Assembly (NCBI GenBank): GCA_020342155.1 | Contig: CP070842.1 | Span: 1,108,594 to 1,172,593 of the forward strand | DNA: 64,000 bases | Origin: Dehalococcoidales bacterium | Lineage (GTDB): Bacteria; Chloroflexota; Dehalococcoidia; Dehalococcoidales; Fen-1064 | Direction of reading: 5' to 3' | Part shown: positions 2,423 through 46,995 of the stretch, in pieces | How positions within the stretch are numbered: the stretch's first letter is position 1 | Layout: every line of letters begins with the position of its first letter | Made by a program: the position numbers and the translations under genes | Notes under the pieces: generated by a model | The model's input: the letters and a program-made list of their open reading frames with translations, nothing else | Database searches by the model: none | Told to the model about the DNA's origin: nothing

Positions 2423-2607
2423 TAAGTCATATTAAAACAACTCACAGCTCCATTTATTCTGAATAACCATACTAGTGGTTATTATTCTCTTTGATCTATC
2501 CCCTCTCCACCCCCCTAATCCACCTTTTGGTTGATAAAATCCTCCCTGATCTGTATGTATTCTTTGTACAGGTACAACAGAAACTAATAAAAGGAGGTAT
2601 CAGGACG

Positions 2608-2754
2608 ATGACAAAATTAGGTGAGGATTTTCGCAGAGCCGACGCGGAAAAGGGCGAAAAAGATGAACGTTCCTGGGGACCATGCAAGTATTGTCCTCTG
2701 TCCCGCATAGGGTGCCCCATGTCAAGCTTCTGTGAGAAATTGTTTCGCAGATAA
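2608..2754 (+). CDS. small Cys-rich hypothetical protein (48 aa)
   Basis: The ATG lies 7 nt after AAGGAGGT. The sequence is MTKLGEDFRRADAEKGEKDERSWGPCKYCPLSRIGCPMSSFCEKLFRR with C-x2-C-x6-C-x5-C spacing. The longer 87-aa ORF-track version has no RBS. Confidence 0.4.
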   Translation: MTKLGEDFRRADAEKGEKDERSWGPCKYCPLSRIGCPMSSFCEKLFRR

Positions 2755-2818
2755 TAAAGCAGATAATAAAAGGGTAATTACCTCAATGGTAAATGGAAAT
2801 AAAGGAGGTGAAAGGAAA

Positions 2819-3262
2819 ATGATCAACGAGGAGAAAACTTCCCAAGAGCAAACCTATTCTCAATTTGAAGATATGACATACGCTAAGACAATGTCAAAGA
2901 CTGCACGGTACAAACGGAGGGGTTGGCGCCTGGGCGACAGCCTCGATGCTTTCGGCTGGGCTGTCTTTTTCATCTGGGGTGCACTGGTGGTAGCAGCTAA
3001 TATAACCGATTTCTCAGAGAGTTACAACTGGTGGGATGGTTGGGGCGTGTTCTTCACAGGCGTAGCGGCGATCGTACTGGTCGGGACTGCCATTCGATGG
3101 CTGGTCCCGAAGTACAGACGCGCGGGTCTAATATGGGGGCTCGTATTCGGACTCATCCTGCTGGGCATCGGCTTGGGTGATATCGCGGTATGGATCTGGC
3201 CGCTTCTCTTAGGTGCCATAGGTATCAGTATCCTTTACCGATTATTTGTCAGAAGGCGTTAA
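2819..3262 (+). CDS. small integral membrane protein, unknown function
   Basis: An internal ATG is preceded by AAAGGAGGTGA. There are about four hydrophobic helices (AVFFIWGALVVAA, GVFFTGVAAIVLVG, LIWGLVFGLILLGIGLG, IWPLLLGAIGISILY). Confidence 0.55.
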   Translation: MINEEKTSQEQTYSQFEDMTYAKTMSKTARYKRRGWRLGDSLDAFGWAVFFIWGALVVAANITDFSESYNWWDGWGVFFTGVAAIVLVGTAIRWLVPKYRRAGLIWGLVFGLILLGIGLGDIAVWIWPLLLGAIGISILYRLFVRRR

Positions 3263-3425
3263 CGGATTGACCGATGTACGTAGATGTTCCACCTTGGGGA
3301 GTTAATATACGCTATACAATTCATAATTTGGAGAATAATAAAACATGTGAATATGGATTACACAATTGCTATTGGGTGACTTGAATACTGCATTAATGCC
3401 CATGTAATGAAAGGAGGCATAATTT

Positions 3426-4262
3426 ATGAGTATATCAGGAAAAACATGTGTGGTTACCGGGGCGAGTTCTGGGTTAGGACTTGCAACAACCAAGCAGTTT
3501 GCCAGATTGGGGGCAAATGTAGTTTTAGTCTGTCGTTCCCCCAAAAAGGGTGAAAATGCTGTTGCTGAAGTCCAAAGAGAAGTACCGAATGCATCGGTTG
3601 AGCTTATGATTTGTGATTTAGCCTCAATAGAATCTGTCAGGAATTTTATTGAAAAGTTTAAAGCGAATCACCCTAAACTGCAAATCCTTTTTAATAATGC
3701 CGCTGTCATGAAGATGCAGCGTACTGTTACCGAGGACGGCTTCGAGACCATGTTTCAAACGAACTATTTGGCACCTTTTATACTTACCATGTCTTTTCTT
3801 AATCTAATGAAGAACAGTTCGCCGGCACAAGTTATCAATATAGCTGTGCCATCGCGTAAACTTCGGCTGGATTTTAATGATTTACAGTCTTCCAACCATT
3901 ATGGAGCCTGGGATTCTTTCTTCAAAACGAAGCTTTGTCTTCTCCTGTTTAGTATCGAGCTTTCACGAAGAGTAGATAGTTCCGGGATTACGGTAGTTAT
4001 TACCGCCCCTGGGTCATTCAAATCTAACCTTGTACGAGAAGCTCGATGGCCGATAGGCCAGATAAAGAATCTATTTTCGGGAACTGTAGAAAAGGCTGCC
4101 GAGAACATTGCTTTCCTTGCCTCTTCGTATGAAGACCATTCACGAAACGGGAAAATATATGTGAAAAAACAGGAAAAACCTATCATCCCATACTGGAATA
4201 ACAGCAGTATCAGTAAGCGTCTCTGGTCAATTACCGAGTCTCTGGTTGGCGAGACTCCCTAG
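3426..4262 (+). CDS. short-chain dehydrogenase/reductase (SDR)
   Basis: It has the TGASSGLG Rossmann motif and the NNAA motif, is of SDR-typical length, and has an AAAGGAGG RBS. Confidence 0.85.
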   Translation: MSISGKTCVVTGASSGLGLATTKQFARLGANVVLVCRSPKKGENAVAEVQREVPNASVELMICDLASIESVRNFIEKFKANHPKLQILFNNAAVMKMQRTVTEDGFETMFQTNYLAPFILTMSFLNLMKNSSPAQVINIAVPSRKLRLDFNDLQSSNHYGAWDSFFKTKLCLLLFSIELSRRVDSSGITVVITAPGSFKSNLVREARWPIGQIKNLFSGTVEKAAENIAFLASSYEDHSRNGKIYVKKQEKPIIPYWNNSSISKRLWSITESLVGETP

Positions 4263-4350
4263 AAAAGACAACTTATACAAGCATGGTTTCAAATAACAAA
4301 GAAAGAGCTTTAGAAAAAGCGGACACATTAAAATAAAAGAGGCGTGCAGG

Positions 4351-4563
4351 ATGACACAGGGTGTATACCAGATTAAAGTCAAAGGCAAACTCGATAGCAG
4401 TCGTTCGGAATGGTTTGAAGGATGGACCATTACACATGAGGAAGATGGCACCACAGTATTGTCCGGCCAAGTAGCCGACCAGTCCGCCCTACACGGAGTG
4501 CTTGTTAGAATTCGCAACCTTAACCTACCTATAGTCTCAGTCCATTGTGTAGAGCCGCAATAG
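4351..4563 (+). CDS. small conserved hypothetical protein (70 aa)
   Basis: The ORF has an upstream purine-rich RBS. The C-terminal half (GQVADQSALHGVLVRIRNLNLPIVSV) resembles a widespread small protein family of unknown function. Confidence 0.5.
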   Translation: MTQGVYQIKVKGKLDSSRSEWFEGWTITHEEDGTTVLSGQVADQSALHGVLVRIRNLNLPIVSVHCVEPQ

Positions 4564-4614
4564 GCAAAAAGCTAAATAATAAAAAGAAAGAGAAATAAAG
4601 TTGAACCACGAATA

Positions 4615-5073
4615 TTGCAACGTATTAAAGGCTTAATAGGCGTAGACACATATCAAAATATTGAGCACGTGTATACTAAAGAACAGGTAAACAAGCTCTT
4701 AGAGGAATACCAGGTTAATTTCCCTGAAGCTATGCATAGAAATGTTAAATCCATGTTCAAGCCTGATTCAAATCCTGATTTAGTTGAAAAAGTTACCGCA
4801 GACATGTCTGCAGTTCTGCCTAGAATAGCATTAGAAATAGCTAGAGCATTCATGGAGCCAAAGCTGAATCTAGCCCAAGTATTGGATAAAGTGAAAACTC
4901 CAATACACTGCATAGCTTCTGATAGGGAGATAATTGATATTGAGGTTACACTTAGACATGTTTCATCTTTCGAAGTGTCATATATGTCAGATGTTGGACA
5001 CTTTGTTATGATTGAGGATCCTGATACATTTAATCGTCTAATTAACGAGATTTTTAATGAATTCGTTAGCTAG
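4615..5073 (+). pseudogene. alpha/beta-hydrolase C-terminal fragment (5'-truncated)
   Basis: Only the cap and C-terminal His region of the fold is present (VGHFVMIEDPDTFNRLINEI). There is no nucleophile-elbow G-x-S-x-G half. The ORF begins with TTG directly after the preceding gene. Confidence 0.4.
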
Positions 5074-6838: not shown

Positions 6839-7057
6839 TTTCCCAGCTACTCCTCTCAAAAATCAACTATGATTAACGGTAACCTCAACCCATTATATGA
6901 CTATCACATCCAGGCTGGATACTCGGTCAGCCAGCTTTACCTATGCCCAATTGTAGCGGTAATGGCGTAAAGTAACAAGCTTATTCTTTGCTCCGTAGAG
7001 TGAATCCCCCGAATCGGACACGCCACATAAGAAGTATTATGTTGAGAAACCAGAACG

Positions 7058-8683
7058 CTAGCGCCGGCTCGCCACTTCCTGCAACACCTCGGGCTTATGT
7101 ATGACATAGCGTCGGTTCTTCCCGCTCAAAATGTCTGACTTTCGAAAGCTTCGTAATAGCTTCCGTACATCGGCTACGGCAATCCCGGCCATGCCGGCAA
7201 GCTCCGATATAGAAAGAGAAACCGATATTGCCCACCCATCCGGCGTCTCCGTGCCGTGTGCCCGCATCAGCTCTAACAGGGTCCCAGCAAGACGGGCCGG
7301 TGGATTGTGGAAGATAACACTTTCCAGATGATAATTCAGGTCACGGATGCGCTGGGTAAGTACACCGAAGATACCGATAGCCGCCTCAGGATACCACCTC
7401 AGAAACTCAAGGAAGTCCCCACGTTCCAGGATAAATGTCTCCGTTGACTCGACTGCAGTGGCCGAAGCAGAGCGGGGTTTCTCATCCAGGAGCGACATCT
7501 CGCCGAAAAAATCGCCCGGACCAAGGTGGGCCAGCGTCATACTCTGGCCTTCTTTCCCAGGCACGCTTATCCTAACATCACCACTTCTGATTATGTAAAG
7601 AGCTGAGCCGACTTCATCCTTTCGGAATATGGTCTGCCCCTTCCGGTACCGCCTTTCCTGAAGCTTTTCCGAAAGCTCAGCCAGGTCATCGGAAGATATC
7701 GAGGCAAACAGAGGAATGCCTTTCAATGCCTCGGCCTTCCCTCGCAGAATCCGGGTATATGAGACGTGTTCCGGTACGGGAGTGCTCTCTGCATCCACCA
7801 GCTCACGCACAGAGGTCTTCAACTCGGTAAGAACCTCATCGATATCGGACGGACGGTTCGCCGGGTTCTTGGCCAGCATCTTCAGGATCAATGAGCTAAG
7901 GCGTTTCGGAATTCCCGGATTCCGCACATCCGGACTGGCCGGTGTTACCTGAATATGCTGGGAAACGAGGGATATGTCATCACTCAACGAAAAGGGAGGC
8001 TGGCCCGTTAGCGTTTCATACAAGACCACACCGAGGGAGTAGATATCACTCCTCGCGTCCACCTCCCGACCGAGGGCCTGTTCAGGAGCCATGTAAGTCG
8101 GTGTACCTCCGACCGAAGCGCCCGGCATGGTTGACTGGTCCTGCTGCATCCTGGCAATACCGAAGTCCATCAGCTTGACCTCATCGCCAACCACAATGTT
8201 CCCCGGCTTGATATCGCAGTGAATGACGCCGTGCCCGTGAGCATATGAGAGGGCAGCAGCAACCTTCGCGATAATTTCCAGCGCTTCGCTGATAGTGAGC
8301 CTCTTCTTACCATCATAGGCACCCTCTCGTATCTCCAGAATCGTGCTCAGGAGTGTCCCCGAGACGTATTCCATCACGAGATATGCCTGGTCTTCATACC
8401 AACCACAATTGTATAATGTCACTATGTTAGGATGGTTCATCCGTGCCAGTGACCTGGCCTCCCGGTAGAATTGTCCCGGGTTCTGGCGGCTGACCGTCCC
8501 CGGTTTAATTAGCTTTATAGCAACCGACCTGTCAAGCAACTCGTCTGTCGCCAGATAGACAGAGCCCATTCCTCCCTGCCCTAGGAGCTTTTCAACCCCG
8601 TACCGGTCGGCAATTGATTTGCCGACTATGCTCAAGGTTTGTAGCTCATCGTCCATTAACCACGGATTCTCTTCTTCATCCAT
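7058..8683 (-). CDS. Hanks-type Ser/Thr protein kinase fused to a complete Crp/Fnr-type module (cNMP-binding domain + HTH)
   Basis: Kinase motifs are GQGGMGSVYLA, VAIK, HCDIKPGN, DFG and APE. These are followed by a cNMP-binding beta-barrel (GDFFGEMSLLD..RSASA) and a C-terminal Crp-like HTH (ISELAGMAGIAVADVRKLLRSF). The start is taken at the ATG after GAGGAA and remains uncertain up to 8758. Confidence 0.8.
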   Translation of the reverse strand: MDEEENPWLMDDELQTLSIVGKSIADRYGVEKLLGQGGMGSVYLATDELLDRSVAIKLIKPGTVSRQNPGQFYREARSLARMNHPNIVTLYNCGWYEDQAYLVMEYVSGTLLSTILEIREGAYDGKKRLTISEALEIIAKVAAALSYAHGHGVIHCDIKPGNIVVGDEVKLMDFGIARMQQDQSTMPGASVGGTPTYMAPEQALGREVDARSDIYSLGVVLYETLTGQPPFSLSDDISLVSQHIQVTPASPDVRNPGIPKRLSSLILKMLAKNPANRPSDIDEVLTELKTSVRELVDAESTPVPEHVSYTRILRGKAEALKGIPLFASISSDDLAELSEKLQERRYRKGQTIFRKDEVGSALYIIRSGDVRISVPGKEGQSMTLAHLGPGDFFGEMSLLDEKPRSASATAVESTETFILERGDFLEFLRWYPEAAIGIFGVLTQRIRDLNYHLESVIFHNPPARLAGTLLELMRAHGTETPDGWAISVSLSISELAGMAGIAVADVRKLLRSFRKSDILSGKNRRYVIHKPEVLQEVASRR

Positions 8684-11407: not shown

Positions 11408-12094
11408 TTACCAAGAAACCATGATGATTCCGCCCAGAAAATGAGTTAATATTGCCCACTGTAAGGTGCCCGTCTTTTTAGTTAAATAACTCAGATACAA
11501 TCCCATTGCTACCGGACCTATCATCATGCCCAACAGATTACCACCAAGTACTGAGACAGGTACAAAATGCCATACGCCGAACCATATGCCCGGCCATATC
11601 ATCCTGTAGAAGATACTATCAGGGAATAGTGTTACATATACACCTCGCCACAGCACTTCTTCGAAGAAACCATTGCCAACAGTTGTCGAAAATATAAGAA
11701 TCAAAATCCATAGGCTTGTTTTCTCGTACCCTGGCATTCCTGGTACAAGCCTGGCACCGACTGCACCTAATAAGGGAATGGCCATCAGTAAGAGCATTTT
11801 CTTACTGAGTTTCTGAGGCTTTAGTAGCGCCTTAATATTTTCTTTACCAATAATCACAAGAGGAAAGACTGCGCCCCAGATTAGCCAGTATATTGCCAGT
11901 CCGAGGTACCACGCTACCCTGTCATTAGCTAGTGCCTCTACTAATAAGTGAAAAACAGGGTACATAGAGGCCATCAATATTAGTGGTGCAATAACAGCAA
12001 TTATTCGTTTTTTGTCAGTAAGACTAACCAGCATATTGGCTTTTATTCGACTCGTACATCTAAATGCAGAGTCAGACATCATTACTGCTTTCAT
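11408..12094 (-). CDS. CPBP-family intramembrane glutamic endopeptidase (CAAX protease-like)
   Basis: It is a polytopic membrane protein with the EEVLWRG motif and downstream FGVWH / HF motifs. Confidence 0.75.
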   Translation of the reverse strand: MKAVMMSDSAFRCTSRIKANMLVSLTDKKRIIAVIAPLILMASMYPVFHLLVEALANDRVAWYLGLAIYWLIWGAVFPLVIIGKENIKALLKPQKLSKKMLLLMAIPLLGAVGARLVPGMPGYEKTSLWILILIFSTTVGNGFFEEVLWRGVYVTLFPDSIFYRMIWPGIWFGVWHFVPVSVLGGNLLGMMIGPVAMGLYLSYLTKKTGTLQWAILTHFLGGIIMVSW

Positions 12095-26956: not shown

Positions 26957-27418
26957 ATGGAGCGGTTGAACCCGGAGAAACTCCATGTAACGTACTTAAC
27001 CGGCACTACTCCTGAGAGTCTCGTGTTACCCAGACGTTACACGCTGACTCACTCTGATATTTCAGGCAAGCTCTTTCTCTCCATCGGTAGTGATTATGAT
27101 ACACGGAAGACTTCTAAATTATATACCAGACTAATGAGGGATGAAGTATTGGCAGAATTAGTAGACGAGGGAGAAGGTCCTGTATTCAGGGTGCACTGTC
27201 ATGTCAGTGGAGGATTTGTTTTTGGTAGGGCTAAGTGGCGGTATGATATCTTCCAATCTGAACTACCGCTCGTGTTGGAAGCTATAAGATACGGTGATAG
27301 GACACTATTTGAATATAATCCAGAACTCGACAACAGCCTGATATTCATAAAATTCCATTCAACTGATAGCAAGTTTGATAAGGTCGAAAATTGGGGTACC
27401 ATGCTCAGATACAACTGA
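26957..27418 (+). CDS. Staygreen (SGR, Mg-dechelatase) family protein
   Basis: RRYTLTHSDISGKL, RDEVLAE and VHCHVSGG are hallmark SGR motifs. The ATG lies 1 nt after the ArsC-family stop codon. Confidence 0.8.
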   Translation: MERLNPEKLHVTYLTGTTPESLVLPRRYTLTHSDISGKLFLSIGSDYDTRKTSKLYTRLMRDEVLAELVDEGEGPVFRVHCHVSGGFVFGRAKWRYDIFQSELPLVLEAIRYGDRTLFEYNPELDNSLIFIKFHSTDSKFDKVENWGTMLRYN

Positions 27419-30781: not shown

Positions 30782-30858
30782 TGGTACCCCTGGTGCGACT
30801 CGAACGCACGACACACGGTTTAGGAAACCGTTGCTCTATCCTACTGAGCTACAGGGGC
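30782..30858 (-). tRNA. tRNA-Arg (anticodon CCT), CCA encoded
   Basis: The reverse complement folds by hand as a 77-nt cloverleaf. Its parts are acceptor GCCCCTG/CAGGGGT, D-arm GCTC-AGTAGGATA-GAGC, anticodon arm ACGGT-TTCCTAA-ACCGT, T-arm GTGCG-TTCGAGT-CGCAC, and A-CCA. Confidence 0.9.
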
Positions 30859-38994: not shown

Positions 38995-39029
38995 AACCCC
39001 AAATAGTCCAGAATATCGCATAACTACGT

Positions 39030-39227
39030 TCACCATTCCTCCCTGGGAACCTTCCTCATACCACGGGAATCGGTGAAAGCATAGGCGAATACCGCATCCT
39101 GTGGAGCTGCCTTGAGGATGCTCTCCTTGACATCTTCGTATCGGCCGTGGTACTCAGGTAATCGGTCGCCACGACTATCAAATGTCATAACCATATTATC
39201 CTGAAAGCGTATAACGGCTCTAATCAT
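39030..39227 (-). CDS. small hypothetical protein (65 aa)
   Basis: The sequence is MIRAVIRFQDNMVMTFDSRGDRLPEYHGRYEDVKESILKAAPQDAVF.... The upstream 37 codons of the ORF-track version look like read-through of the intergenic region. Confidence 0.4.
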   Translation of the reverse strand: MIRAVIRFQDNMVMTFDSRGDRLPEYHGRYEDVKESILKAAPQDAVFAYAFTDSRGMRKVPREEW

Positions 39228-39319
39228 AGCGTTGCCTGCCTCTTCTCGTTCCGCACACGGTCTTTCCTGGCTAGGCAACACCCTTCGGCAACCCCTTTTA
39301 GTCAGCACCTGCCGTCGCC

Positions 39320-39714
39320 TCAACTCGCCTGGTACCAAACGGATGCAGCCTGTGCAGTACGTCTCAACTTCGCCTTTATTCGAGCGACCAGTTCGACGGC
39401 ACTGAAGGGCTTGGTCACGTAGTCATCAGCACCGAGATTCAGCGCCTTTCGCAGAGTAGGCCCTTCGCATCGTCCTGTAACCATAACTACAGGGATATTA
39501 CTGTGCTCACGGATGAGGTCGAGCACCTGAAATCCATCTAGGTCATTCATTACGATATCGAGCAGCACTAGGTCCGGTTGCCACTCGTCTATCTCTGCCT
39601 CCGCCCTACCGAGACCCTGATAATGAAATCACGCGAAAATCCCCGTCACGTCTGCACACATGATTTACTGCGCAGACAATTCCGGAGGAATCTCCTGTCG
39701 ATTACACCCTCCAT
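39320..39714 (-). pseudogene. decayed stand-alone response-regulator receiver gene
   Basis: The C-terminal two thirds are intact (PDLVLLDIVMNDLDGF...VVMVTG...GADDYVTKPF). The N-terminal third is interrupted by in-frame TAA and TGA and is out of frame with the only upstream ATG (39714). The acidic DD pocket is unrecognisable. Confidence 0.55.
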
Positions 39715-39923
39715 TGCTACCCGCCGGAGACTGACTGGCATGCGCCAGAACTGTTCTCACCTATCATCAAGATAACTCAGTCTGGCAGAGTGTGCCATTG
39801 GTAGGTATACCTAATTAGATTCGAGACAGTTCCCTAGTTCTAACACGAAGGCTTCTGGAGATGGCCTGCCACCTAAGAATTGGAGTCCAGCTAGTCTCAT
39901 CTTTCCTTTTGCAAGCAGGGTGT

Positions 39924-40140
39924 AAACCAAGGGGGACACCCCCTTGAATTCCCGTTCCAAAGGGGTTACACCCCTCTGGACTCCCCAAAACGGTGTGGGA
40001 TCAATTCTCTAGCAGGGACCATTCGCATCTAAAAAAGAGCCCGAAGCCGGGGGCACAAATGCACTTCCCTAGAGACAAGGTCTCCAAATGCTGCTAAAGG
40101 GTAGTCAAAGAGGGGCTGTACCCTATCTGAACGAGCACAT
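39924..40140. repeat. hairpin-rich inverted repeat, copy 1 (partner 43515-43707, inverted)
   Basis: By manual alignment, its reverse complement matches copy 2 with a handful of substitutions and small indels. Nested palindromes are CAAGGGGGACACCCCCTTG, CCAAAGGGGTTACACCCCTCTGG and TAGAGACAAGGTCTCC. Confidence 0.8.
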
Positions 40141-40144
40141 TTCC

Positions 40145-40174
40145 TTGACACTCGACTGGCAAAGGACTTACAAT
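40145..40174 (+). promoter_or_regulatory. sigma70-like promoter TTGACA-18-TACAAT for the CoA-transferase operon
   Basis: Read directly. It is preceded by ccctatctgaacgagcaca, which is also found before the dsrE-like promoter. Confidence 0.55.
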
Positions 40175-40256
40175 CACCGCATCAAACTACCGAGGTTCGT
40201 GGCTATCGGTAGAAACCGACCCTGTATTGGAATTTTGATTGGAGCAGGAGAAGAAC

Positions 40257-41471
40257 ATGGAGCAAGCGTTATCTGATATCAAGGTGTTGGACCTCACACA
40301 TTACATAGCCGGTCCTTACTGTACCAAGCTTCTGGCTGACTATGGTGCCGATGTCCTCAAGGTAGAGAGGCCTGATGGCGGAGACTGGGCAAGAAGGATG
40401 GGTCCGTTCCTCGGGAATGAACCTCATCCTGACAAGAGCGGACTCTTTCTTCATCTTAATACTAGCAAGAGAGGCATCACTCTTAACCTGAAGGCACAAG
40501 ACGGGAAGAAGATTTTCCGGGAGCTGGTGAGAGATGTTGACATCCTCGTGGAGAACTTCAGTCCCAGGGTAATGCCGTCGTTGGGGCTGTCCTACGAAGA
40601 GCTGGAGAAGATAAACCCGAAGTTGGTAATGACGTCAATATCCAATTTCGGCCAGTCGGGCCCCTACAGGGACTTCAAGGCTTCGGAGCTGATTATCTAT
40701 GGGATGGGTGGTGCCATGAATGAGACCGGTATGTTCGACCGCTATCCCCTGAAGAAAGCAGGCAACGTTATACAGTACCAGGTAGGGACGATGGCAGCGG
40801 TATCAACCATGGTGGCTCTCTTTGCTAGCCAGGCTCAGAGCGCCGGTCAACACGTTGATTTGTCCATGTTTGAAAGCCAGGCAGGCACTATCGACCGCCG
40901 GATGAGCCACTTCATCACCTATCAATATAACAATGAGACCAGCTACAGACCGGACCCGGAGATAGACCCACCCGGATTTCCCTATGGAATCTATGCCTGC
41001 CAGGACGGTTTCTTCCAGCTTACCGGGGGCTTTGTTTTCTGGGACCGAATCTGCAAGATGATGGATAGGCCTGACCTGGTAGATGACCCCGGGTTCAGCA
41101 CTCAGGAAGGGCAGCGTGACCCCGAAAACCTAGAGCGGTTCAGCATCATCTGGTACCCCTGGATTGCCGAACGCACTAAGCTGGAGATTATTACCGCCGG
41201 TCAGGCGGCCGGCGTGCTCTGCGGACCGATAAACGATCCCGGTGATCTGGTGAATGATCCCCACTGGAAGGCAAGGGGATTCTGGGAGGAAATAGAGCAC
41301 TCCGTAGCTGGGAGACTTACCTACCCCGGAGCGCCTTTTAAGATGGACGAGACTCCCTGGCGGGCGAGCCGGCCGGCTCCCCGATTAGGTGAGCACAATA
41401 ATGAGGTCTATGGTGAGTTAGGGTACTCTGGTGAAGATCTGGAGAGATTGAAGGAGCAAGGGGTAATCTGA
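40257..41471 (+). CDS. family III CoA-transferase (CaiB/BaiF)
   Basis: The N-terminus LSDIKVLDLTHYIAGPYCTKLLADYGADVLKVERP is the family signature. The ATG follows GGAGCAGGAG. Confidence 0.85.
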   Translation: MEQALSDIKVLDLTHYIAGPYCTKLLADYGADVLKVERPDGGDWARRMGPFLGNEPHPDKSGLFLHLNTSKRGITLNLKAQDGKKIFRELVRDVDILVENFSPRVMPSLGLSYEELEKINPKLVMTSISNFGQSGPYRDFKASELIIYGMGGAMNETGMFDRYPLKKAGNVIQYQVGTMAAVSTMVALFASQAQSAGQHVDLSMFESQAGTIDRRMSHFITYQYNNETSYRPDPEIDPPGFPYGIYACQDGFFQLTGGFVFWDRICKMMDRPDLVDDPGFSTQEGQRDPENLERFSIIWYPWIAERTKLEIITAGQAAGVLCGPINDPGDLVNDPHWKARGFWEEIEHSVAGRLTYPGAPFKMDETPWRASRPAPRLGEHNNEVYGELGYSGEDLERLKEQGVI

Positions 41472-41513
41472 GGTTGTTGTGGATAGTATTACGCTTTTAG
41501 AAGAGAGGAGCTA

Positions 41514-42824
41514 GTGATGGTTAAGTTGCCTTTAGAAGGAATTAGAGTTGTTGATATTACGGTAATCTATGCTGGGCCGTTTGCTACCATGAACCTGGCT
41601 GACTGGGGGGCTGAGGTTATTCGCGTAGAATCAATCAAGCACTTTCAGGTCCTTACCAGGGGAGGTACCGCGCACCCCAACCAGGATATAGTGTCTGATC
41701 CGGTCAGGACTGGAGGAATAGCCACTTATTGTGGTCGAGATGTTAGCTTTCGGCCGTGGAACCGTTGGACTCTTTTTAACGCCCATGCCCGGAACAAGCT
41801 TGGCTGCACCATGGACATGACACAACCGAAGGGCATTGAGATTTTCAAACGGCTTATTGCGATGAGTGATGTCTTCCTTGAGAGTAATGCTCCCCATGTC
41901 AAGGAAAACCTTGGTCTGACCTACGACGTTTTAAAAGAAATAAATCCTAAGCTGATAATGCTCTCCATGCCCGGCTTCGGTGGCTCCGGACCCTATAAGT
42001 ACTACCGGGCGCTGGGTGTCCACCAGGAAGGTTTTATCGGCCACACCGCTCTCAGGGGTTATCCCGATAGCGACCCGTCGACCACGTCTACCGTTTATCA
42101 TGCCGACGAAGCTGCCGGGGCAACCGCCGCCCTGGCAGTGCTGATGGCCCTGCACTATCGTAACCGCACCGGTAAGGGACAGCACATCGACATGGCCCAG
42201 GCTGAGGCCACTATGCCCCATCTCGGTGAGGCTATCATGGACTATACGATGAATAATCGTGTCCAGGAAAGTATGGCAAACCGCATGCCTGGAGCAGCCC
42301 CCTGTGGCTGCTACCGCTGTACGGGAGAAGACCGTTGGGTAAACATCACCGTTACCTCCGATGAGGAGTGGCAGGGACTACGCCGCGCTATGGGCGACCC
42401 GGAATGGGCTAAGGATGAGAAGTTTACTGACAGCCTCAGCCGCGAGAATAATCAGGACGAGCTAGACGAACATATCAGCAAGTGGACCACAAACCACAAC
42501 CACTACGACCTGATGCACATGCTGCAGAAAGAGGGAGTCCCCGCCGGGCCGATAATATTCGAAGATGATGCCTATACCGACCCTCATCTCAAGGAGCGAG
42601 GGTTCTTCCAGGAAGTTACCCAAGAGGAGTGCGGCACTCATATCTACCCGGGGTACGGTTTCAAGATTTCGGGAGTGCCGAACAGTATTCGCCGGCCACC
42701 GGTCCGACTCGGTGAGCACAACGAATACGTCTATAAAGAAGTCCTTGGGGTATCCGACGAAGAGTACCAGCAGCTTGAGGAAGAAGGCCACATCGGCATG
42801 GACTTCTTGCCAGAGGTTCGTTAA
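41514..42824 (+). CDS. family III CoA-transferase (CaiB/BaiF), second paralogue
   Basis: It has LEGIRVVDITVIYAGPFATMNLADWGAEVIRVES and is 436 aa. Confidence 0.85.
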   Translation: MMVKLPLEGIRVVDITVIYAGPFATMNLADWGAEVIRVESIKHFQVLTRGGTAHPNQDIVSDPVRTGGIATYCGRDVSFRPWNRWTLFNAHARNKLGCTMDMTQPKGIEIFKRLIAMSDVFLESNAPHVKENLGLTYDVLKEINPKLIMLSMPGFGGSGPYKYYRALGVHQEGFIGHTALRGYPDSDPSTTSTVYHADEAAGATAALAVLMALHYRNRTGKGQHIDMAQAEATMPHLGEAIMDYTMNNRVQESMANRMPGAAPCGCYRCTGEDRWVNITVTSDEEWQGLRRAMGDPEWAKDEKFTDSLSRENNQDELDEHISKWTTNHNHYDLMHMLQKEGVPAGPIIFEDDAYTDPHLKERGFFQEVTQEECGTHIYPGYGFKISGVPNSIRRPPVRLGEHNEYVYKEVLGVSDEEYQQLEEEGHIGMDFLPEVR

Positions 42825-42854
42825 AACTAACTGGCATTATTGCTGCATAGTTTG

Positions 42855-42890
42855 AAGGGGATTTCGTTTGAAACGAAATCCCCATTTTTA
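42855..42890. terminator. bidirectional terminator between convergent genes
   Basis: GGGGATTTCGTTT/AAACGAAATCCCC is a perfect palindrome flanked by A/T runs on both sides. Confidence 0.7.
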
Positions 42891-42894
42891 TTAG

Positions 42895-43317
42895 CTATAC
42901 ATACCAGTTCACGACGGCAGTTCGGGCAATCTCAAGGAATGTTCCCAGGCCGATGTCCCCATCCACTTCAGGAATAAGGTCTTCGCGCCGGATATTAAAG
43001 GCAGACATGACGCCAACACAGGCATACAGGTTCAGTCCCAGCTCCTTGGCATCGGCAAGCAGCTTTCCCAGAGGGTTGAGGGCACCTGTCATCAGACCGA
43101 ACTCGATGTCTTTCCTGGATTGTGCTGTGGTCTCTTCACCCATTTCCTCAAGGTGGCCGAGGGTAAACCGTCTCAGGCCGCCGTGGGTCAATAGCATGTG
43201 TGCCTCCATACCTGTGGCCAGGGCAACTAAAGCCATTGTCAGGGCATAGCTGGTACGGTCGTAGCTGTCACTGTGCAGGATAATAGTCACCTTTTCCGAG
43301 TCACGTTTTATGGTCAC
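42895..43317 (-). CDS. DsrE/DsrF-like family protein
   Basis: It is 140 aa. KVTIILHSDSYDRTSYALTMALVALATGMEAHMLLTHGG is typical of the DsrE-like fold. The GTG start follows GGGGGAGGGAAA. Confidence 0.55.
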   Translation of the reverse strand: MTIKRDSEKVTIILHSDSYDRTSYALTMALVALATGMEAHMLLTHGGLRRFTLGHLEEMGEETTAQSRKDIEFGLMTGALNPLGKLLADAKELGLNLYACVGVMSAFNIRREDLIPEVDGDIGLGTFLEIARTAVVNWYV

Positions 43318-43374
43318 GGTTTCCCTCCCCCTGTGGACTGCATCATATTGTCGTACCTAAGGTGGTGGTCGTCT

Positions 43375-43404
43375 ATGATACCCAATGTTTGGCGGGACGG
43401 TCAA
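43375..43404 (-). promoter_or_regulatory. sigma70-like promoter TTGACC-18-TATCAT for the dsrE-like gene
   Basis: Read on the minus strand. It is preceded by ccctatctgaacgggcaca, homologous to the sequence before the CoA-transferase promoter. Confidence 0.5.
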
Positions 43405-43493
43405 GTACGTGTGCCCGTTCAGATAGGGCTCTGCCCCTGCTTAGTGGTGGTAGCCCTATCCCCCTGTATCCCCCTTCCCTAGCGGGGAAGGGG

Positions 43494-43525
43494 GAATAAA
43501 CTAAAAAGAGGGGCACAGCCCCTCT
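43494..43525 (-). terminator. terminator-like hairpin (minus strand) inside the extra segment of repeat copy 2
   Basis: AGAGGGGC-tgt-GCCCCTCT followed by TTTTTAGTTTATT on the minus strand. Confidence 0.45.
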
Positions 43526-43707
43526 TTGACTCCCCTTCAGCAGCATTTAGAGACCTTGTCTCTAGGGAAGTGCGTACCCCCGGCTTCCGGCTCTTTTTTA
43601 GGTGCGAATGGTCCCTGCTGGAGAATTGCCCCCACACCGTTTTGGGGAGTCCAGAGGGGTGTAACCCCTTTGGAACGGGGTTTCAAGGGGGTGTCCCCCT
43701 TTGGTTT
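43515..43707. repeat. hairpin-rich inverted repeat, copy 2
   Basis: See copy 1. Weaker homology continues on both sides (about 43360-43428 and 43716-43790). Confidence 0.8.
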
Positions 43708-43827
43708 CCCATTCATCTCGAAAAGATAGTGAGATAGCCAGGGAAAGAAAGCTATAATACTCTTGCTTGTTCCTGCTTGCCTGCACATGATACTATCAGG
43801 TGAAATACGGTTAGAACAGGCGGTGTC

Positions 43828-44490
43828 GTGAAGGGGGATAAGCTCGTAATAAACGAGGGGCATATCAGGGCAGCGCATCGGGCGCTGGAATTGCTCCTTC
43901 CCGGAATAACCAGCAGTCAGGGACGATTTGTTATTACCATCGCTGGTGAGTCCGGTAGTGGGAAATCGGAAATCGCTGCGGCTTTATCAGAGGCACTCTC
44001 ACAGAAAGACATTAAAAGCATCATCCTCCAGCAGGACGACTACTTCGTTTACCCGCCGAAGACAAACGAGAACATGCGGCGTAAAGACATTGGTCACGTC
44101 GGGATGTCCGAGGTACGCCTCGATCTGATTGACCAGAACCTCAAGGTTGCCATCACAGGTCAGAGAACTATCAGCAAGCCTCTGGTAATCTTCGATGAAG
44201 ACCGCATCACAGAGGAAACGGCCAACCTCGAAGGAATCAAGGTGGTCGTCGTTGAAGGGACTTACACTACGACGCTGAAACATGCTCACCAGCACATTTT
44301 TATTGACCGGAACTATATTGATACCATGGAGGCACGCCGACAGAGGGCCAGGGAAACCCAGGATGACTTTCTCAAAAAAGTACTCGAAATCGAGCATGGT
44401 ATCATCCAGCCCCAGAAGAAGCGAGCCAGTATTATCATAACCAGAGACTACGAAGCAAAATGGAATGAATCAGAAGACAAGCAGTCTTAA
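43828..44490 (+). CDS. uridine-kinase/phosphoribulokinase-family P-loop kinase
   Basis: It has Walker A IAGESGSGKSE and the QQDDYF motif. The start is GTG. Confidence 0.6.
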   Translation: MKGDKLVINEGHIRAAHRALELLLPGITSSQGRFVITIAGESGSGKSEIAAALSEALSQKDIKSIILQQDDYFVYPPKTNENMRRKDIGHVGMSEVRLDLIDQNLKVAITGQRTISKPLVIFDEDRITEETANLEGIKVVVVEGTYTTTLKHAHQHIFIDRNYIDTMEARRQRARETQDDFLKKVLEIEHGIIQPQKKRASIIITRDYEAKWNESEDKQS

Positions 44491-45745
44491 GAACATCTGC
44501 ATGCTGAGCACCCACGGTTACTTCGACCCGGTCCCCCAGCTTGGCAGGACCGACACCGGCGGTCAAGTTGTCTACGTGCTGCAACTGGCCAAAGCCCTGA
44601 CCACACACGGAATTAAGGTCGATATCTATACCCGGTGGTTCGACCGGGACAAGCCCCAGATCGACCCAGTCCCTGATAATGTCGACGTCAGGATTGTCCG
44701 GATACCAGCCGGACCGTGGGAGTTTATCCCCAAGGAGGAAATTTACAATGTCCTGCCGGAACTGGCCGGGAACATGACAGGCTTCATCCGTGAGCACAAT
44801 CTGGACTACAACCTTTTTCACGGCCACTATGTTGACGCCGGGATTGTCACGCTCGATGTCGCCAGAGCACTTAACAGGCCGGCCTTCTTCACAGCCCATT
44901 CCCTAGGAGCCTGGAAGAAAGAACAGATGGGCGGCGACCCGGTAGAAATGGAAAAGAAGTTCAGGTTCAGTCACCGAATAGCCGAAGAACTCCGAGTCTT
45001 CAGGTCGGTGAGGGCACAAACAGTCACTACCGACGTACAGAGAGAAAAACTCCGAGAGCTGTACGGGTTCACATCCGATGATATCACCGTTATCCCGCCA
45101 GGAGTAGACATTCATACTTTCCGCCCAATGGAAAGCGAGGAAGCAAGTATGGACATCGGGCTGGTGGACAGATATATCCTCTGCCTGAGCCGGATAGACT
45201 CCAATAAGGGGCACGACCTCCTTCTTAACGCCTTCGACCTCGTGTGTAAATCAGTCCCGGACATCCATCTTGTTATCGGCGGCGGTTCAACGAGTAAGGC
45301 CGGACCGACCGAGCTTGAGGTCCTAGCCGACATGAAAAGAATCATCGCTGAGAAAGACATGGGGCACCGTGTCCACATCACAGGTTATATCCCGGATGAA
45401 CACCTGGTAGCGACCTACCGCCAGGCGGCGATGTTTGTCCTGCCATCTCTCTTCGAACCGTTCGGTATGACCGCCCTGGAGGCGATGGCCTGCGGCAGGC
45501 CGGTAGTGGCCTCCCGACTAGGCGGCATACGGGAGGTCGTTACCTCGGAAGAAAGCAGCCTGCTGGTTGACCCCGCCGACCCCAGGGAATTCTCCGCCGC
45601 CATCATAAGGCTCCTGAACGATGAGCAGCTTTCCCAGCGTATTGGTGAACAGGGACGCTACATCGTGCGCGAAAGATACAGCTGGGCTGCGATAGCAGCC
45701 CAGCACATCGAGTTCTACGAGCAATACCTGAACAGGCAAATGTAG
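44465..45745 (+). CDS. GT4 glycosyltransferase of the sucrose-phosphate-synthase type
   Basis: STHGYFDPVPQLGRTDTGGQVVYVLQLAKAL is the SPS-type N-terminal signature. The C-terminal E-x7-E region is PSLFEPFGMTALEAMACG. It overlaps the kinase gene by 26 nt. Confidence 0.75.
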   Translation: MNQKTSSLKNICMLSTHGYFDPVPQLGRTDTGGQVVYVLQLAKALTTHGIKVDIYTRWFDRDKPQIDPVPDNVDVRIVRIPAGPWEFIPKEEIYNVLPELAGNMTGFIREHNLDYNLFHGHYVDAGIVTLDVARALNRPAFFTAHSLGAWKKEQMGGDPVEMEKKFRFSHRIAEELRVFRSVRAQTVTTDVQREKLRELYGFTSDDITVIPPGVDIHTFRPMESEEASMDIGLVDRYILCLSRIDSNKGHDLLLNAFDLVCKSVPDIHLVIGGGSTSKAGPTELEVLADMKRIIAEKDMGHRVHITGYIPDEHLVATYRQAAMFVLPSLFEPFGMTALEAMACGRPVVASRLGGIREVVTSEESSLLVDPADPREFSAAIIRLLNDEQLSQRIGEQGRYIVRERYSWAAIAAQHIEFYEQYLNRQM

Positions 45746-45846
45746 CCGCATTCGGCTCTCCCTGCAATGACCTCAAACCCCCACTATTTGCGTAGAGTAA
45801 CATCCAACGTGTAACATCTAATAAGTACGTGAGTATCGGAGGCGGT

Positions 45847-46995
45847 ATGGAAGAAATACCCTTTACAAGACCCCTTATCGGCGAAGAGGAGGAAGCAGAA
45901 GTCGTCGCTACCCTGCGTTCCGGTCTGATTGGTACCGGAGTAAAGACCGAGCATCTGGAGCGGGAGTTTGCTGCCTACCAGGGAACCAGACACGGCATTG
46001 GTACCAACTCCTGCACGGCGGCGTTGCACCTCAGCCTCCACGCTCTTGGTATCGGTCCGGGTGACGAGGTAATAACTACCGCGATGACGTTCGTGTCAAC
46101 GGCAAGCTCAATAGTATACACCGGGGCTAAACCTGTATTTGCCGATGTCGAGCCGGATACACTATGTATCGACCCGGCCCGTATCGAAGCCGCCGTAACG
46201 GAACGCACCAGGGCAATCATACCCGTACACATCTACGGACAGCCCTGCGACATGGACGGGATACTGGATATTGCCCAACGCCATAACCTGAAGGTGGTCA
46301 GCGACTGCGCCCATGCCATCGAGGCTGAATACAGGGGCAAGAAGGTCGGCAGCCTCGGGGATACTGCCTGTTACTCCTTCTATGCCACCAAGAATATGAC
46401 GGCTGGTAACGGCGGGATGCTGGTGACCGATGATGACAATCTGACACAGCTTATTCAGTCACAGCGGGACCACGGGATGGCCTCCGGGGCCTGGACGCGG
46501 TACCAGACGGGAGAGTTCCAGGAGTACCCGATGATACAGCTCGGTTTCAAGTACATCTTGTGGGACCTCCCCGCTTCCATAGGGCTACACCAGCTACGAA
46601 AGATTGAACAAAGGCACCAGAAGCGTCTCGAAGTGGCTAACCGGTACGGTGCGGCGCTCAAATCCCTGTCTGACCACGTAGAGGTATTAAAGACCCGAGA
46701 AGGTGTACGGCATGCCCACCACCTTTACGTTATCAAGCTCAAGGGAGTGGATCGAAACCAGGTAGCTGCCGGAATGGAGAAAAGGGGCATCGGTGTCGGT
46801 ATCCACTACCGGCCCGTTCACCTTGAACCGTACCACCGGGAGGAACACGGGCACGCCCCGGGTGAGTGTCCGGTCGCTGAGGATGCCGGAGGACGAGTGC
46901 TGTCACTACCATTCTGGCCGGAGATAAGCGAAGAGGAAGTCCTCAGGGTGGTCGAGACACTCGGAGAAGTAATCACTGAGTGCCGGGAGAGTTAA
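45847..46995 (+). CDS. DegT/DnrJ/EryC1/StrS-family PLP aminotransferase
   Basis: It has FTRPLIGEEE, a DCAHA context, and the SFYATKNMTAGNGG Lys motif. The ATG follows GGAGG. Confidence 0.85.
   Translation: MEEIPFTRPLIGEEEEAEVVATLRSGLIGTGVKTEHLEREFAAYQGTRHGIGTNSCTAALHLSLHALGIGPGDEVITTAMTFVSTASSIVYTGAKPVFADVEPDTLCIDPARIEAAVTERTRAIIPVHIYGQPCDMDGILDIAQRHNLKVVSDCAHAIEAEYRGKKVGSLGDTACYSFYATKNMTAGNGGMLVTDDDNLTQLIQSQRDHGMASGAWTRYQTGEFQEYPMIQLGFKYILWDLPASIGLHQLRKIEQRHQKRLEVANRYGAALKSLSDHVEVLKTREGVRHAHHLYVIKLKGVDRNQVAAGMEKRGIGVGIHYRPVHLEPYHREEHGHAPGECPVAEDAGGRVLSLPFWPEISEEEVLRVVETLGEVITECRES

Follow-up and report, generated by a model that had tools for sequence, protein, structure and literature searches.

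A REP-like family of dispersed intergenic repeats in uncultured Dehalococcoidia and the likely inversion of a CoA-transferase/DsrE module between two of its copies

In a 64,000-nucleotide stretch of the Dehalococcoidales bacterium contig CP070842.1 (hereafter the window, whose own numbering is used throughout), two genes for family-III CoA-transferases converge with a gene for a DsrE-like protein, a gene content that a first-pass annotation of the sequence had put forward and that Pfam searches recovered. Three collinear inverted blocks detected by a repeat finder bracket this CoA-transferase/DsrE module and make up a left and a right arm, which between them hold the features collected in Table 1. 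The arms belong to a family of repeats that is present in several genomes, is intergenic and modular, and has no fixed orientation to genes; furthermore, the 3.25-kb segment between the arms is, as assembled, inverted relative to all related contigs recovered, with the breakpoints in the arms. In light of these observations we propose, as the likely explanation, that the arms are members of a dispersed family of uncultured Dehalococcoidia/Chloroflexota comparable to the repetitive extragenic palindromes (REPs) and to their mosaic clusters, the bacterial interspersed mosaic elements (BIMEs), and that recombination between the two copies inverted the module.

The first-pass annotation had described the arms as an inverted repeat matching almost base for base, and this holds good: BLASTN aligns 39924-40123 with 43707-43511 at 91.5% identity over 201 columns (E 1.6e-78), the two longer blocks are 87-94% identical, and a weaker similarity of ~70% continues outward for some 45 nt beyond the arms, again as described. 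The palindromes that it had named were all found in the arms, and the asymmetry that it had noted in their imperfect positions, G.U on one strand versus A.C on the other, is present in CCAGAGGGG/CCCCTTTGG of both arms and in TGGAGAC/GTCTCTA of the left arm. Likewise, the shared ccctatctgaacgRgcaca lies at both promoters within the 39-nt inverted block, and the two inward-firing promoters themselves, placed at 40145 (+) and 43404 (-), are the best matches of a consensus scan. No third copy of the arm was detected by BLASTN in the window, and the three main hairpin patterns, searched with up to 3 mismatches, are confined to the two arms, with 0-0.03 occurrences expected by chance. Pairwise alignment shows that the right-arm stretch 43439-43513 (~75 nt) is missing from the left arm; this deficit is a deletion between GGGCnCnGCCCCT micro-repeats, which removed hairpin hpA and half of hairpin hpB from the module that we term m5. 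The arms also share a run of 49 identical nucleotides, which spans 39951-39999 in the left arm and includes the hairpin hpC. A perfect 15-nt inverted match just outside both arms (39502-39516 / 44784-44798, TGTGCTCACGGATGA / TCATCCGTGAGCACA), pairing a response-regulator fragment with a glycosyltransferase gene, is probably due to chance.

Table 1. Features of the bracketed module and its arms (window coordinates; m5, m3 and hpA to hpD are the modules and hairpins of the repeat family)
Feature	Position	Strand	Description
Inverted block 1	39901-40056 / 43574-43729		156 nt, 87% (repeat finder)
Inverted block 2	40061-40123 / 43511-43573		63 nt, 94% (repeat finder)
Inverted block 3	40111-40149 / 43400-43438		39 nt, 82%; includes ccctatctgaacgRgcaca and -35 (repeat finder)
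Truncated response-regulator receiver fragment	39320..39568	-	profile positions 46-111 only; stops where the N-terminus should be
Left arm	39901..40149	family orientation minus	m3, linker, truncated m5 remnant, box, -35 (repeat finder, BLASTN, alignment)
Left m3 copy	39927..40033	-	AGATGCGAA...; hpC 39957-39979, hpD 39928-39946; nhmmer E 1.2e-31
Left linker	40034..40123	-	GGAGAC-ctt-GTCTC hairpin and surviving hpB half
Promoter-proximal box	40111..40149	+	CCCTATCTGAACGAGCACA plus -35 TTGAC of the CoA-transferase promoter
CoA-transferase-pair promoter, sigma-70-like	40145..40174	+	TTGACA-18-TACAAT, 11/12 consensus; conserved in L002, L040, L004
Segment between arms	40150..43399	.	inverted relative to seven related contigs
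Family-III CoA-transferase 1	40257..41471	+	Pfam PF02515, E 8.5e-102; exact protein on L001
Family-III CoA-transferase 2	41514..42824	+	Pfam PF02515, E 6.2e-96
Bidirectional intrinsic terminator	42857..42883	.	between the convergent units
DsrE/DsrF-like gene	42895..43317	-	Pfam PF13686; homologues in related contigs
DsrE-like gene promoter, sigma-70-like	43375..43404	-	TTGACC-18-TATCAT, 10/12 consensus; orthologous promoters in L040, L041, L042
Right arm	43400..43729	family orientation plus	repeat finder, BLASTN, alignment
Right-arm m5	43437..43521	+	CTGCTTAGTGGTGG...; hpA 43471-43493, hpB 43505-43527 (terminator-like on minus strand); nhmmer E 1.9e-20
Right linker m5-m3	43522..43596	+	TAGAGAC-ctt-GTCTCTA and CCGG-ctt-CCGG hairpins; varies among family members
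Right m3 copy	43597..43702	+	hpC 43651-43673, hpD 43684-43702; nhmmer E 3.4e-32
Promoter-like site for PRK/uridine-kinase-like gene (43828-44490)	43729..43758	+	GTGAGA-18-TATAAT; flank conserved in L002, L040

Taking the plus strand of the right arm as the family strand, alignment of the loci resolves the repeat into two modules. The first, m5 (~83 nt), consists of cTGTtcAGTGGTGGaGGCCCCATCCCCT followed by hpA (CCCCTTCCCC/GGGGAAGGGG) and hpB (AAAGAGGGGC/GCCCCTCTTT); the second, m3 (~108 nt), runs from TAAGGTGCGAA through a variable stretch to CACCGTTTTGGGG, hpC (CCAGAGGGG-TGTAA-CCCCTTTGG), AACGGGGGTT and hpD (CAAGGGGGTGTCCCCCTTG), such that a conserved stretch (AGGTGCGAA...CACCGTTTTGGGG) precedes the two hairpins, and it ends sharply on the 3' side. 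When one genome per species was scanned with the exact hpC 23-mer CCAAAGGGGTTACACCCCTCTGG, 12 loci were recovered in six Dehalococcoidia/Chloroflexota metagenome-assembled genomes (MAGs), namely five in W589, two each in W156 and SRP214966_co4_511, and one each in E14, B41T1B8 and the chromosome OZ253478. A slightly degenerate hpC 25-mer recovered 22 metagenome loci, several of them from sulfate-methane transition zone sediments (L-numbers here label the related contigs and loci fetched, with family loci spanning 8 kb around the matches). Homologues of the kind that the first-pass annotation had suggested collecting do, therefore, exist, and the element is not unique to this locus.

Profile searches with nhmmer show that the usual layout is m5, 50-120 nt and then m3, alongside solitary copies of m3 or m5 and clusters; m3 occurs in four copies on the 1.8-kb contig L023 and in pairs in L026, L034 and L037, and in L034 a GNAT gene lies between two direct m3 copies. 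Because the linkers between the modules cannot be aligned from one locus to another, the repeat unit is evidently not copied as a whole. The locus L012 (OZ253478.1), which derives from a 60%-GC-type Dehalococcoidia chromosome, carries tandem arrays that repeat every 137, 130 and 93 nt and in which hpA is oriented relative to hpC/hpD in the way opposite to that of the window; these arrays lie at 2372-3081, 4577-4977 and 6904-7185, their hpC, hpD-like and hpA-like hairpins flank a gene at 3242-4474, and in the 93-nt units hpD is replaced by an ATGGAGG...CCTCCAT hairpin. All family copies examined are intergenic and have ordinary neighbours, among them genes for RpiB, an MFS transporter, GNAT and OMP decarboxylase, with mobile-element genes only occasionally, and the orientation of these neighbours follows no rule (on the 5' side 12 genes point away and 6 point towards the element, as against 11 and 8 on the 3' side). 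The loop of hpD is flipped (ACA versus TGT) in L009 and L017, as is typical of DNA palindromes. The whole arm found no match among viral contigs, phage records or plasmid records (contig scan, BLAST), and nothing specific was found in the literature on REPs or miniature inverted-repeat transposable elements (MITEs) in Dehalococcoidia/Chloroflexi or on the hairpin sequence. As far as these literature and database searches show, the repeat family is undescribed.

Comparison with known repeat classes brings out several likenesses to REPs and BIMEs: the family has short GC-rich imperfect palindromes (hairpins of 19-23 nt), is intergenic and multi-copy, occurs singly, in pairs, in clusters or in tandem with the modules in varying relative orientation (L012; clusters in L023, L026, L034 and L037), shows a G.T bias of one strand, and includes some hairpins that are terminator-like. 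It differs from them in the conserved non-palindromic part of the 108-nt m3 and in its low copy density. Moreover, the feet of hpA, hpB, hpC and hpD show in the alignments no trace of the GTAG or CGTC tetranucleotide that, according to PMC3733652, tags one end of a REP palindrome. The composite units of 100-330 nt beside promoters or terminators are also comparable to the Correia/NEMIS, RUP, ERIC and pneumococcal BOX elements, their build recalling the boxA-boxB-boxC arrangement, and like these they can put promoter or terminator signals beside genes. Unlike MITE-like repeats, the family has neither terminal inverted repeats, the 5' end CTGTtcAGTGGTGG not being an inverted copy of the 3' end CAAGGGGGTGTCCCCCTTG, nor target-site duplications in its flanks, and unlike such modular repeats it has linkers that cannot be aligned between copies. 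A CTGT is conserved at the 5' edge and is a candidate for a target preference. We accordingly liken the working of the element to that of a REP/BIME-type repeat and file it in no named family.

Several other identities were considered and set aside. The attC sites of integrons are defined by RYYYAAC ... GTTRRRY core sites that close one long imperfect hairpin; the two ends of m3 (TAAGGTGCGAA ... CCCCCTTGG) neither pair with each other nor conform to this core-site consensus. A TnpB/IscB omega-RNA finds no nuclease among the Pfam-scanned genes ending just upstream of the elements; a CRISPR repeat is contradicted by array units that are conserved over their full length and have no unique spacers; a sigma-54 promoter, read from the sequence at L006, has the wrong spacing; and a 5' untranslated region or riboswitch does not suit an element without fixed orientation or distance to genes. 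Nor did a consistent autonomous partner emerge, the neighbours comprising a serine recombinase in L007, IstB and HNH genes in L013 and housekeeping genes elsewhere; a 171-amino-acid open reading frame (ORF) between m5 and m3 in L031 gave no Pfam match.

In the light of inverted arms that bracket a small metabolic module, the first-pass annotation had offered as one reading that the arms are terminal inverted repeats left by a composite transposon, now decayed, which delivered the CoA-transferase/DsrE genes, and the truncated response-regulator fragment beside the left arm does show that rearrangement took place here in the past. Nevertheless, this reading was not borne out, and we regard it as highly improbable. 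There is no transposase remnant in or near the arms, and Pfam detected no mobile-element or recombinase gene in the ten genes tested at 34.6-47.0 kb or in 20 ORFs at 22.7-33.9 and 47.0-56.7 kb. The target-site duplications whose search had been advised are likewise missing, there being no direct repeat of at least 7 nt outside the arms. Furthermore, the -35 and box of the promoters themselves form part of the arms and are ancestral in both cases, the same flanking genes surround the module at the same locus in relatives, where it is flipped, and family members elsewhere are single intergenic copies without bracketed cargo.

A structured RNA was another of the first-pass readings; in the form weighed here, m3 or the whole m5-linker-m3 unit would be a multi-copy non-coding RNA gene on the family strand, read outward from the module, and the inverted pair would be two such genes. 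In favour of this, m3 has a ~108-nt conserved core with sharp ends and a variable internal stretch, and the copies are independent of neighbour-gene orientation, as would be expected of free-standing genes. In addition, RNAalifold together with explicit pair counting finds 97% of the cells paired, versus 48-65% when the 3' partners are slid; the family strand contains ~30 G.U cells that would be A.C on the other strand; and compensatory changes occur in L021 (GGTG/CACC to GGCG/CGCC) and in the hpC stem of L024. However, these compensatory cells number only 2 in 24 pairs, most pairs never vary, and the sequences were collected by the hairpin itself, which leaves covariation with little power. 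Similarly, the 266-nt right element folds better than its shuffles on both strands, with a z of -4.4 on the family strand and an equally good -4.1 on the opposite one, as palindromes must. The family alignments show neither a conserved promoter before m3 nor a U-tract terminator after it, the hpD loop is inverted in some copies, the relative orientation of the modules changes in L012, the same hpC core recurs in plasmid origin regions, and the placement of the element relative to its neighbouring genes is not fixed.

Rfam also gave an RNA gene no support: at the gathering threshold it recognized only a tRNA gene in the window (30785-30858, minus strand, 65.2 bits), with E up to 10 it returned nothing relevant over 39500-44000, and in ten related loci it again returned nothing relevant, the best match, Clostridiales-2, reaching 26.7 bits where the gathering score is 58.6. 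This sub-threshold match to a small-RNA motif, at L010 3712-3827 (E 0.025), covers a unit of hpC with hpD-like and hpA-like hairpins and is probably due to chance. On balance, an RNA gene appears rather unlikely and less likely than a role as DNA; the modules most probably function or propagate in the form of single-stranded DNA or of DNA palindromes.

In the plasmid collection, relatives were found only of the short hpC hairpin: m5 gave chance-level matches, and a 71-nt stretch of hpC plus hpD gave one weak match. Of the 22 metagenome loci, five do not resemble Dehalococcoidia (L020/L032 with 36% GC; L027, L030 and L039 with 44-45%), and in those contigs a Mob_Pre (MOBV relaxase) gene is preceded, on the opposite strand, by an identical hpC core of 25-30 nt, after which comes a second long hairpin. 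From hpC to the Mob_Pre start codon there are 136 nt in L020 (1145-1180) and 81 nt in L027 (2051-2081); BLAST matches the L020 region to the mobC-mob interval of a Nostoc plasmid, and L027 also has an integrase and a primase-helicase-like gene. In the Bacteroides uniformis plasmid pBUN1 (L045 2999-3032) BLAST places an hpC variant 74 nt upstream of the annotated mobV, and its hairpin, CCAGAGAGG-TGCAA-CCTCTTTGG, keeps the G.T position and shows one compensatory change in the stem. Upstream of MOBV genes is where an origin of transfer (oriT) would be expected; in pMV158, the MOBV prototype, a set of inverted repeats immediately ahead of mobM makes up oriT, and the relaxase requires single-stranded or supercoiled DNA (PMC5863519). 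At 80% or more, a 32-nt hpC query found 144 plasmid records, and the five of these that were opened all proved to be IncP-1 replicons or to contain an oriV segment of IncP-1-like type. The IncP-1 hairpin, GGGGAGTCCAGAGGGGCG(G)(T/C)AGCCCCTTTGG, occupies the oriV side of the interval between klcA and trfA, and the hpC-like form GGGGAGTCCAGAGGGG..CCCCTTTGG, with the same G.T position, was located in L047 (pKJK5) at 254-286, in L049 (RP4) at 1501-1530, corresponding to 11997-12026 of the record, and in L050 and L051; an hpD-like palindrome ~170 nt from the hpC-like hairpin of pKJK5 is not significant alone.

The chromosomal and plasmid hairpins are alike in a core, GGGG(A/T)GTCCAGAGGGG-loop-CCCCT(T/C)TGG, that is identical or at least 90% so and has the same G.T stem position. 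They are unlike in that the plasmid hairpin occurs in one copy and has a different second hairpin behind it, whereas the Dehalococcoidia hpC is multi-copy, chromosomal, followed by hpD and without an adjoining relaxase. Indeed, despite the shared hpC core, tblastn detected no Mob_Pre homologue in the window or in any Dehalococcoidia locus fetched, and we do not class these elements as MOBV-type oriTs. One may nonetheless ask if the hairpins, and hpC in particular, are recognition sites of a strand-specific HUH nuclease, a MobV/Pre-like relaxase or a RAYT-like enzyme (RAYT, REP-associated tyrosine transposase), with the modules spreading via single-stranded DNA and the inversion being site-specific at hpC. 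The recurrence of the exact core ahead of Mob_Pre in unrelated groups of 45% and 36% GC, the pBUN1 variant with its compensatory change, the architecture of the pMV158 oriT and the inclusion of hpC in the 49-nt identical core of the arms all lend themselves to this idea, which we still judge improbable. Apart from the missing Mob_Pre homologue, no nick site is known in these elements, hpC-like hairpins also lie beside the oriV of IncP-1 plasmids, whose relaxase is of the MOBP type, so that the hairpin is not tied to MOBV, and arms of 250-330 nt recombine without any special enzyme. With the same low expectation we raise the scenario that m3, with its hpC and hpD, descends from a hairpin of plasmid origins, such as those ahead of MOBV genes and beside IncP-1 oriV, and has multiplied on the chromosome; a HUH relaxase or Pre-like enzyme that reads single-stranded DNA would have scattered the modules through Dehalococcoidia genomes and might also have recombined the copies, the inversion included. 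If true, a REP-like class of repeats would have been born from conjugation or replication origins. At present we treat the plasmid link of hpC as a lead suggested by sequence likeness and not as an explanation.

We then compared the arrangement of the module with that on related contigs, which were reached via homologues of CoA-transferase 1 and of the DsrE-like protein. In seven contigs representing five lineages (L002/L003, L040, L042/L043, L044 and L004) the DsrE-CoA-transferase segment lies opposite to the flanks as compared with the window. With slashes marking the segment borders, and with CoA-T and GT standing for CoA-transferase and glycosyltransferase, the window reads DUF4129(+) transglutaminase-like(+) / CoA-T1(+) CoA-T2(+) DsrE(-) / PRK(+) GT(+), whereas L002/L003, at 90% protein identity, read GT(-) PRK(-) / CoA-T1(+) CoA-T2(+) ... 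DsrE(-), L040 reads DsrE(+) CoA-T2(-) CoA-T1(-) / PRK(+) GT(+), and L042/L043 read DUF4129(+) transglutaminase-like(+) / DsrE(+) CoA-T2(-); the gene orders of L044 and L004 agree with the arrangement of the other relatives. BLASTN shows the same switch at the nucleotide level: 40121-43454 of the window matches the minus strand of L040 and 43760-45985 its plus strand, 37367-38999 matches L042/L043 on the plus strand and 40750-43451 on the minus strand, and a corresponding switch is seen against L002/L003, L044 and L004. The resulting breakpoint intervals, 38999-40121 and 43454-43760, include the two arms. Between CoA-transferase 2 and DsrE there is one GNAT gene in L002 (5011-5907) and there are two in L003 (3883-5750), the CoA-transferases of these two contigs being 90% identical, and none in this interval of the window or L040. 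The public Logan contig L052 (SRR14739668) has Illumina adapters at 1-22 and 1446-1468, its trimming being incomplete.

A segment flanked by inverted repeats, opposite in related genomes and with its breakpoints in the repeats, recalls the inversions of the recA type as well as the Hin/Gin, fimS and inverton systems. Unlike the repeats of invertons, the arms are 250-330 nt long instead of 14-30 nt, no invertase or tyrosine recombinase is present in the nearby genes scanned, and each arm has a promoter -35 and box, so that a flip should leave expression unswitched. The segment is opposite to that of the related contigs, and contigs of the same population break in the arms.

Both promoters in L040, L041, L042 and L002 share the -35 TTGAC and, upstream of it, a box of ~31 nt that adjoins the m5 terminus. 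Upstream of DsrE m5 is complete in L041; in L042 it is broken there (1140-1250) by an insertion of ~110 nt with its own palindrome (TCAGAAGTCATTCTGA), which may belong to another small repeat family; L002 has m5 along with a degenerate remnant upstream of CoA-transferase 1, and in L040 only ~15 nt of m5 are kept upstream of that gene. By nhmmer m3 is absent from all four of these contigs, and no box similarity was seen in the more distant L004 and L044. Because the box, the -35 and the m5 end occur at both promoters in close relatives, the inverted duplication of the promoter-upstream region predates this clade. It appears to be old and decaying in the relatives, whereas the arms of the window are both complete and 91-94% alike. 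The boxes of the window match each other at 25/31 positions versus 19-22/31 to their orthologues, while the next 12 nt, which contain the -35, match the orthologues at 10-12/12 and the paralogue at 7/12. This is the pattern expected of gene conversion or crossing-over ending a few bases before the -35, and by this comparison the boxes look homogenised.

A duplicated enhancer or operator, the remaining first-pass reading, is thereby partly upheld, with the box, -35 and m5 end common to both promoters in all close relatives. Judging from this conservation, the promoter-upstream region is possibly regulatory, and the ~31-nt box may be an operator that co-regulates both units.

The proposal of a REP/BIME-like family with a repeat-mediated inversion has to be weighed against several observations that count against it. 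The copy density is low for a REP-like family: the 64 kb of the window contain 2 copies, and one MAG yielded at least 5 exact-hairpin matches. REPINs are moved by RAYT transposases, and a RAYT (a Y1 HUH transposase) turned up in none of the neighbours scanned within the 8-kb loci around the matches. The conserved non-palindromic part of m3, its sharp boundaries and its one-strand G.U bias would be explained by an RNA gene as well, and the conversion signal is built on few informative sites. Lastly, the orientation of the window depends on a single assembly path through the 49-nt run identical in both arms, and the contigs of the same population (L001, L053, L054 and L055, 99.9-100% identical) all end inside this run, and L052 ends in sequencing adapters; the inversion thus stands on the assembly of the window itself.

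This last point could be taken to mean that the inversion is a mis-assembly in which the wrong arm halves were joined across the identical core, the true genome having the ancestral orientation. Such an error would account for every relative having the other orientation, and all the k=31 Logan contigs of the same samples do stop in the identical run. However, ordinary reads are longer than 49 nt, as are the larger k-mers used by common metagenome assemblers; to either side of the identical core the arms differ from each other; and their boxes look exchanged or converted, which implies that the arms do interact. We therefore hold a mis-assembly to be unlikely and prefer a genuine inversion by recombination between the arms.

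The neighbours of the module, identified by Pfam, are a MoxR / DUF58 / DUF4129 / transglutaminase-like cluster upstream, and a PRK-like kinase, a GT4 glycosyltransferase and a DegT aminotransferase downstream. Next to the left arm, the interval 38995-39870 (~900 nt), which holds the response-regulator fragment, is missing from the relatives L042/L043, and this fragment is a remnant of another rearrangement. Elsewhere in the window, a homologue of Staygreen (SGR, Mg-dechelatase-like; 26957-27418, plus strand, PF12638, E 4.7e-50) adjoins steroid-5-alpha-reductase-like, epimerase and FAD-oxidoreductase genes, which is unusual for an anaerobic sediment bacterium.

Bringing these strands together, we posit that the arms are inverted copies of a composite intergenic repeat (m5 plus m3), one directly upstream of each of two paralogous promoters, and that, as long inverted homologies 3.25 kb apart, they would have been kept alike by gene conversion. 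Recombination between the arms could then have flipped the module, general homologous recombination being the simplest agent. The -10, the leader and the gene of each unit would lie inside the flipped segment, and the -35 and box in each arm. Because both arms carry the -35 and box, each unit keeps a complete promoter in either orientation, and the inversion is probably neutral for expression; a flip would alter only which outside neighbour a unit faces, the divergent PRK promoter or the response-regulator remnant. The hairpins, and hpB most of all, may protect the promoters from read-through; on the minus strand of the right arm the scan rates hpB as an intrinsic terminator, and it could shield the DsrE promoter.

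For the uncultured Dehalococcoidia of anoxic sediments, whose non-coding DNA is unexplored, a searchable m5/m3 consensus aids annotation. The repeat family helps to explain breaks in assemblies and flags sites of genome rearrangement. The locus described here offers a case of repeat-mediated inversion in which copies at paralogous promoters have apparently been homogenised and a metabolic module flipped with its promoters intact. Finally, the hpC core is also found in plasmid origin regions across phyla, and if this link is functional, it would tie chromosomal repeats of these bacteria to the machinery of conjugation or replication.

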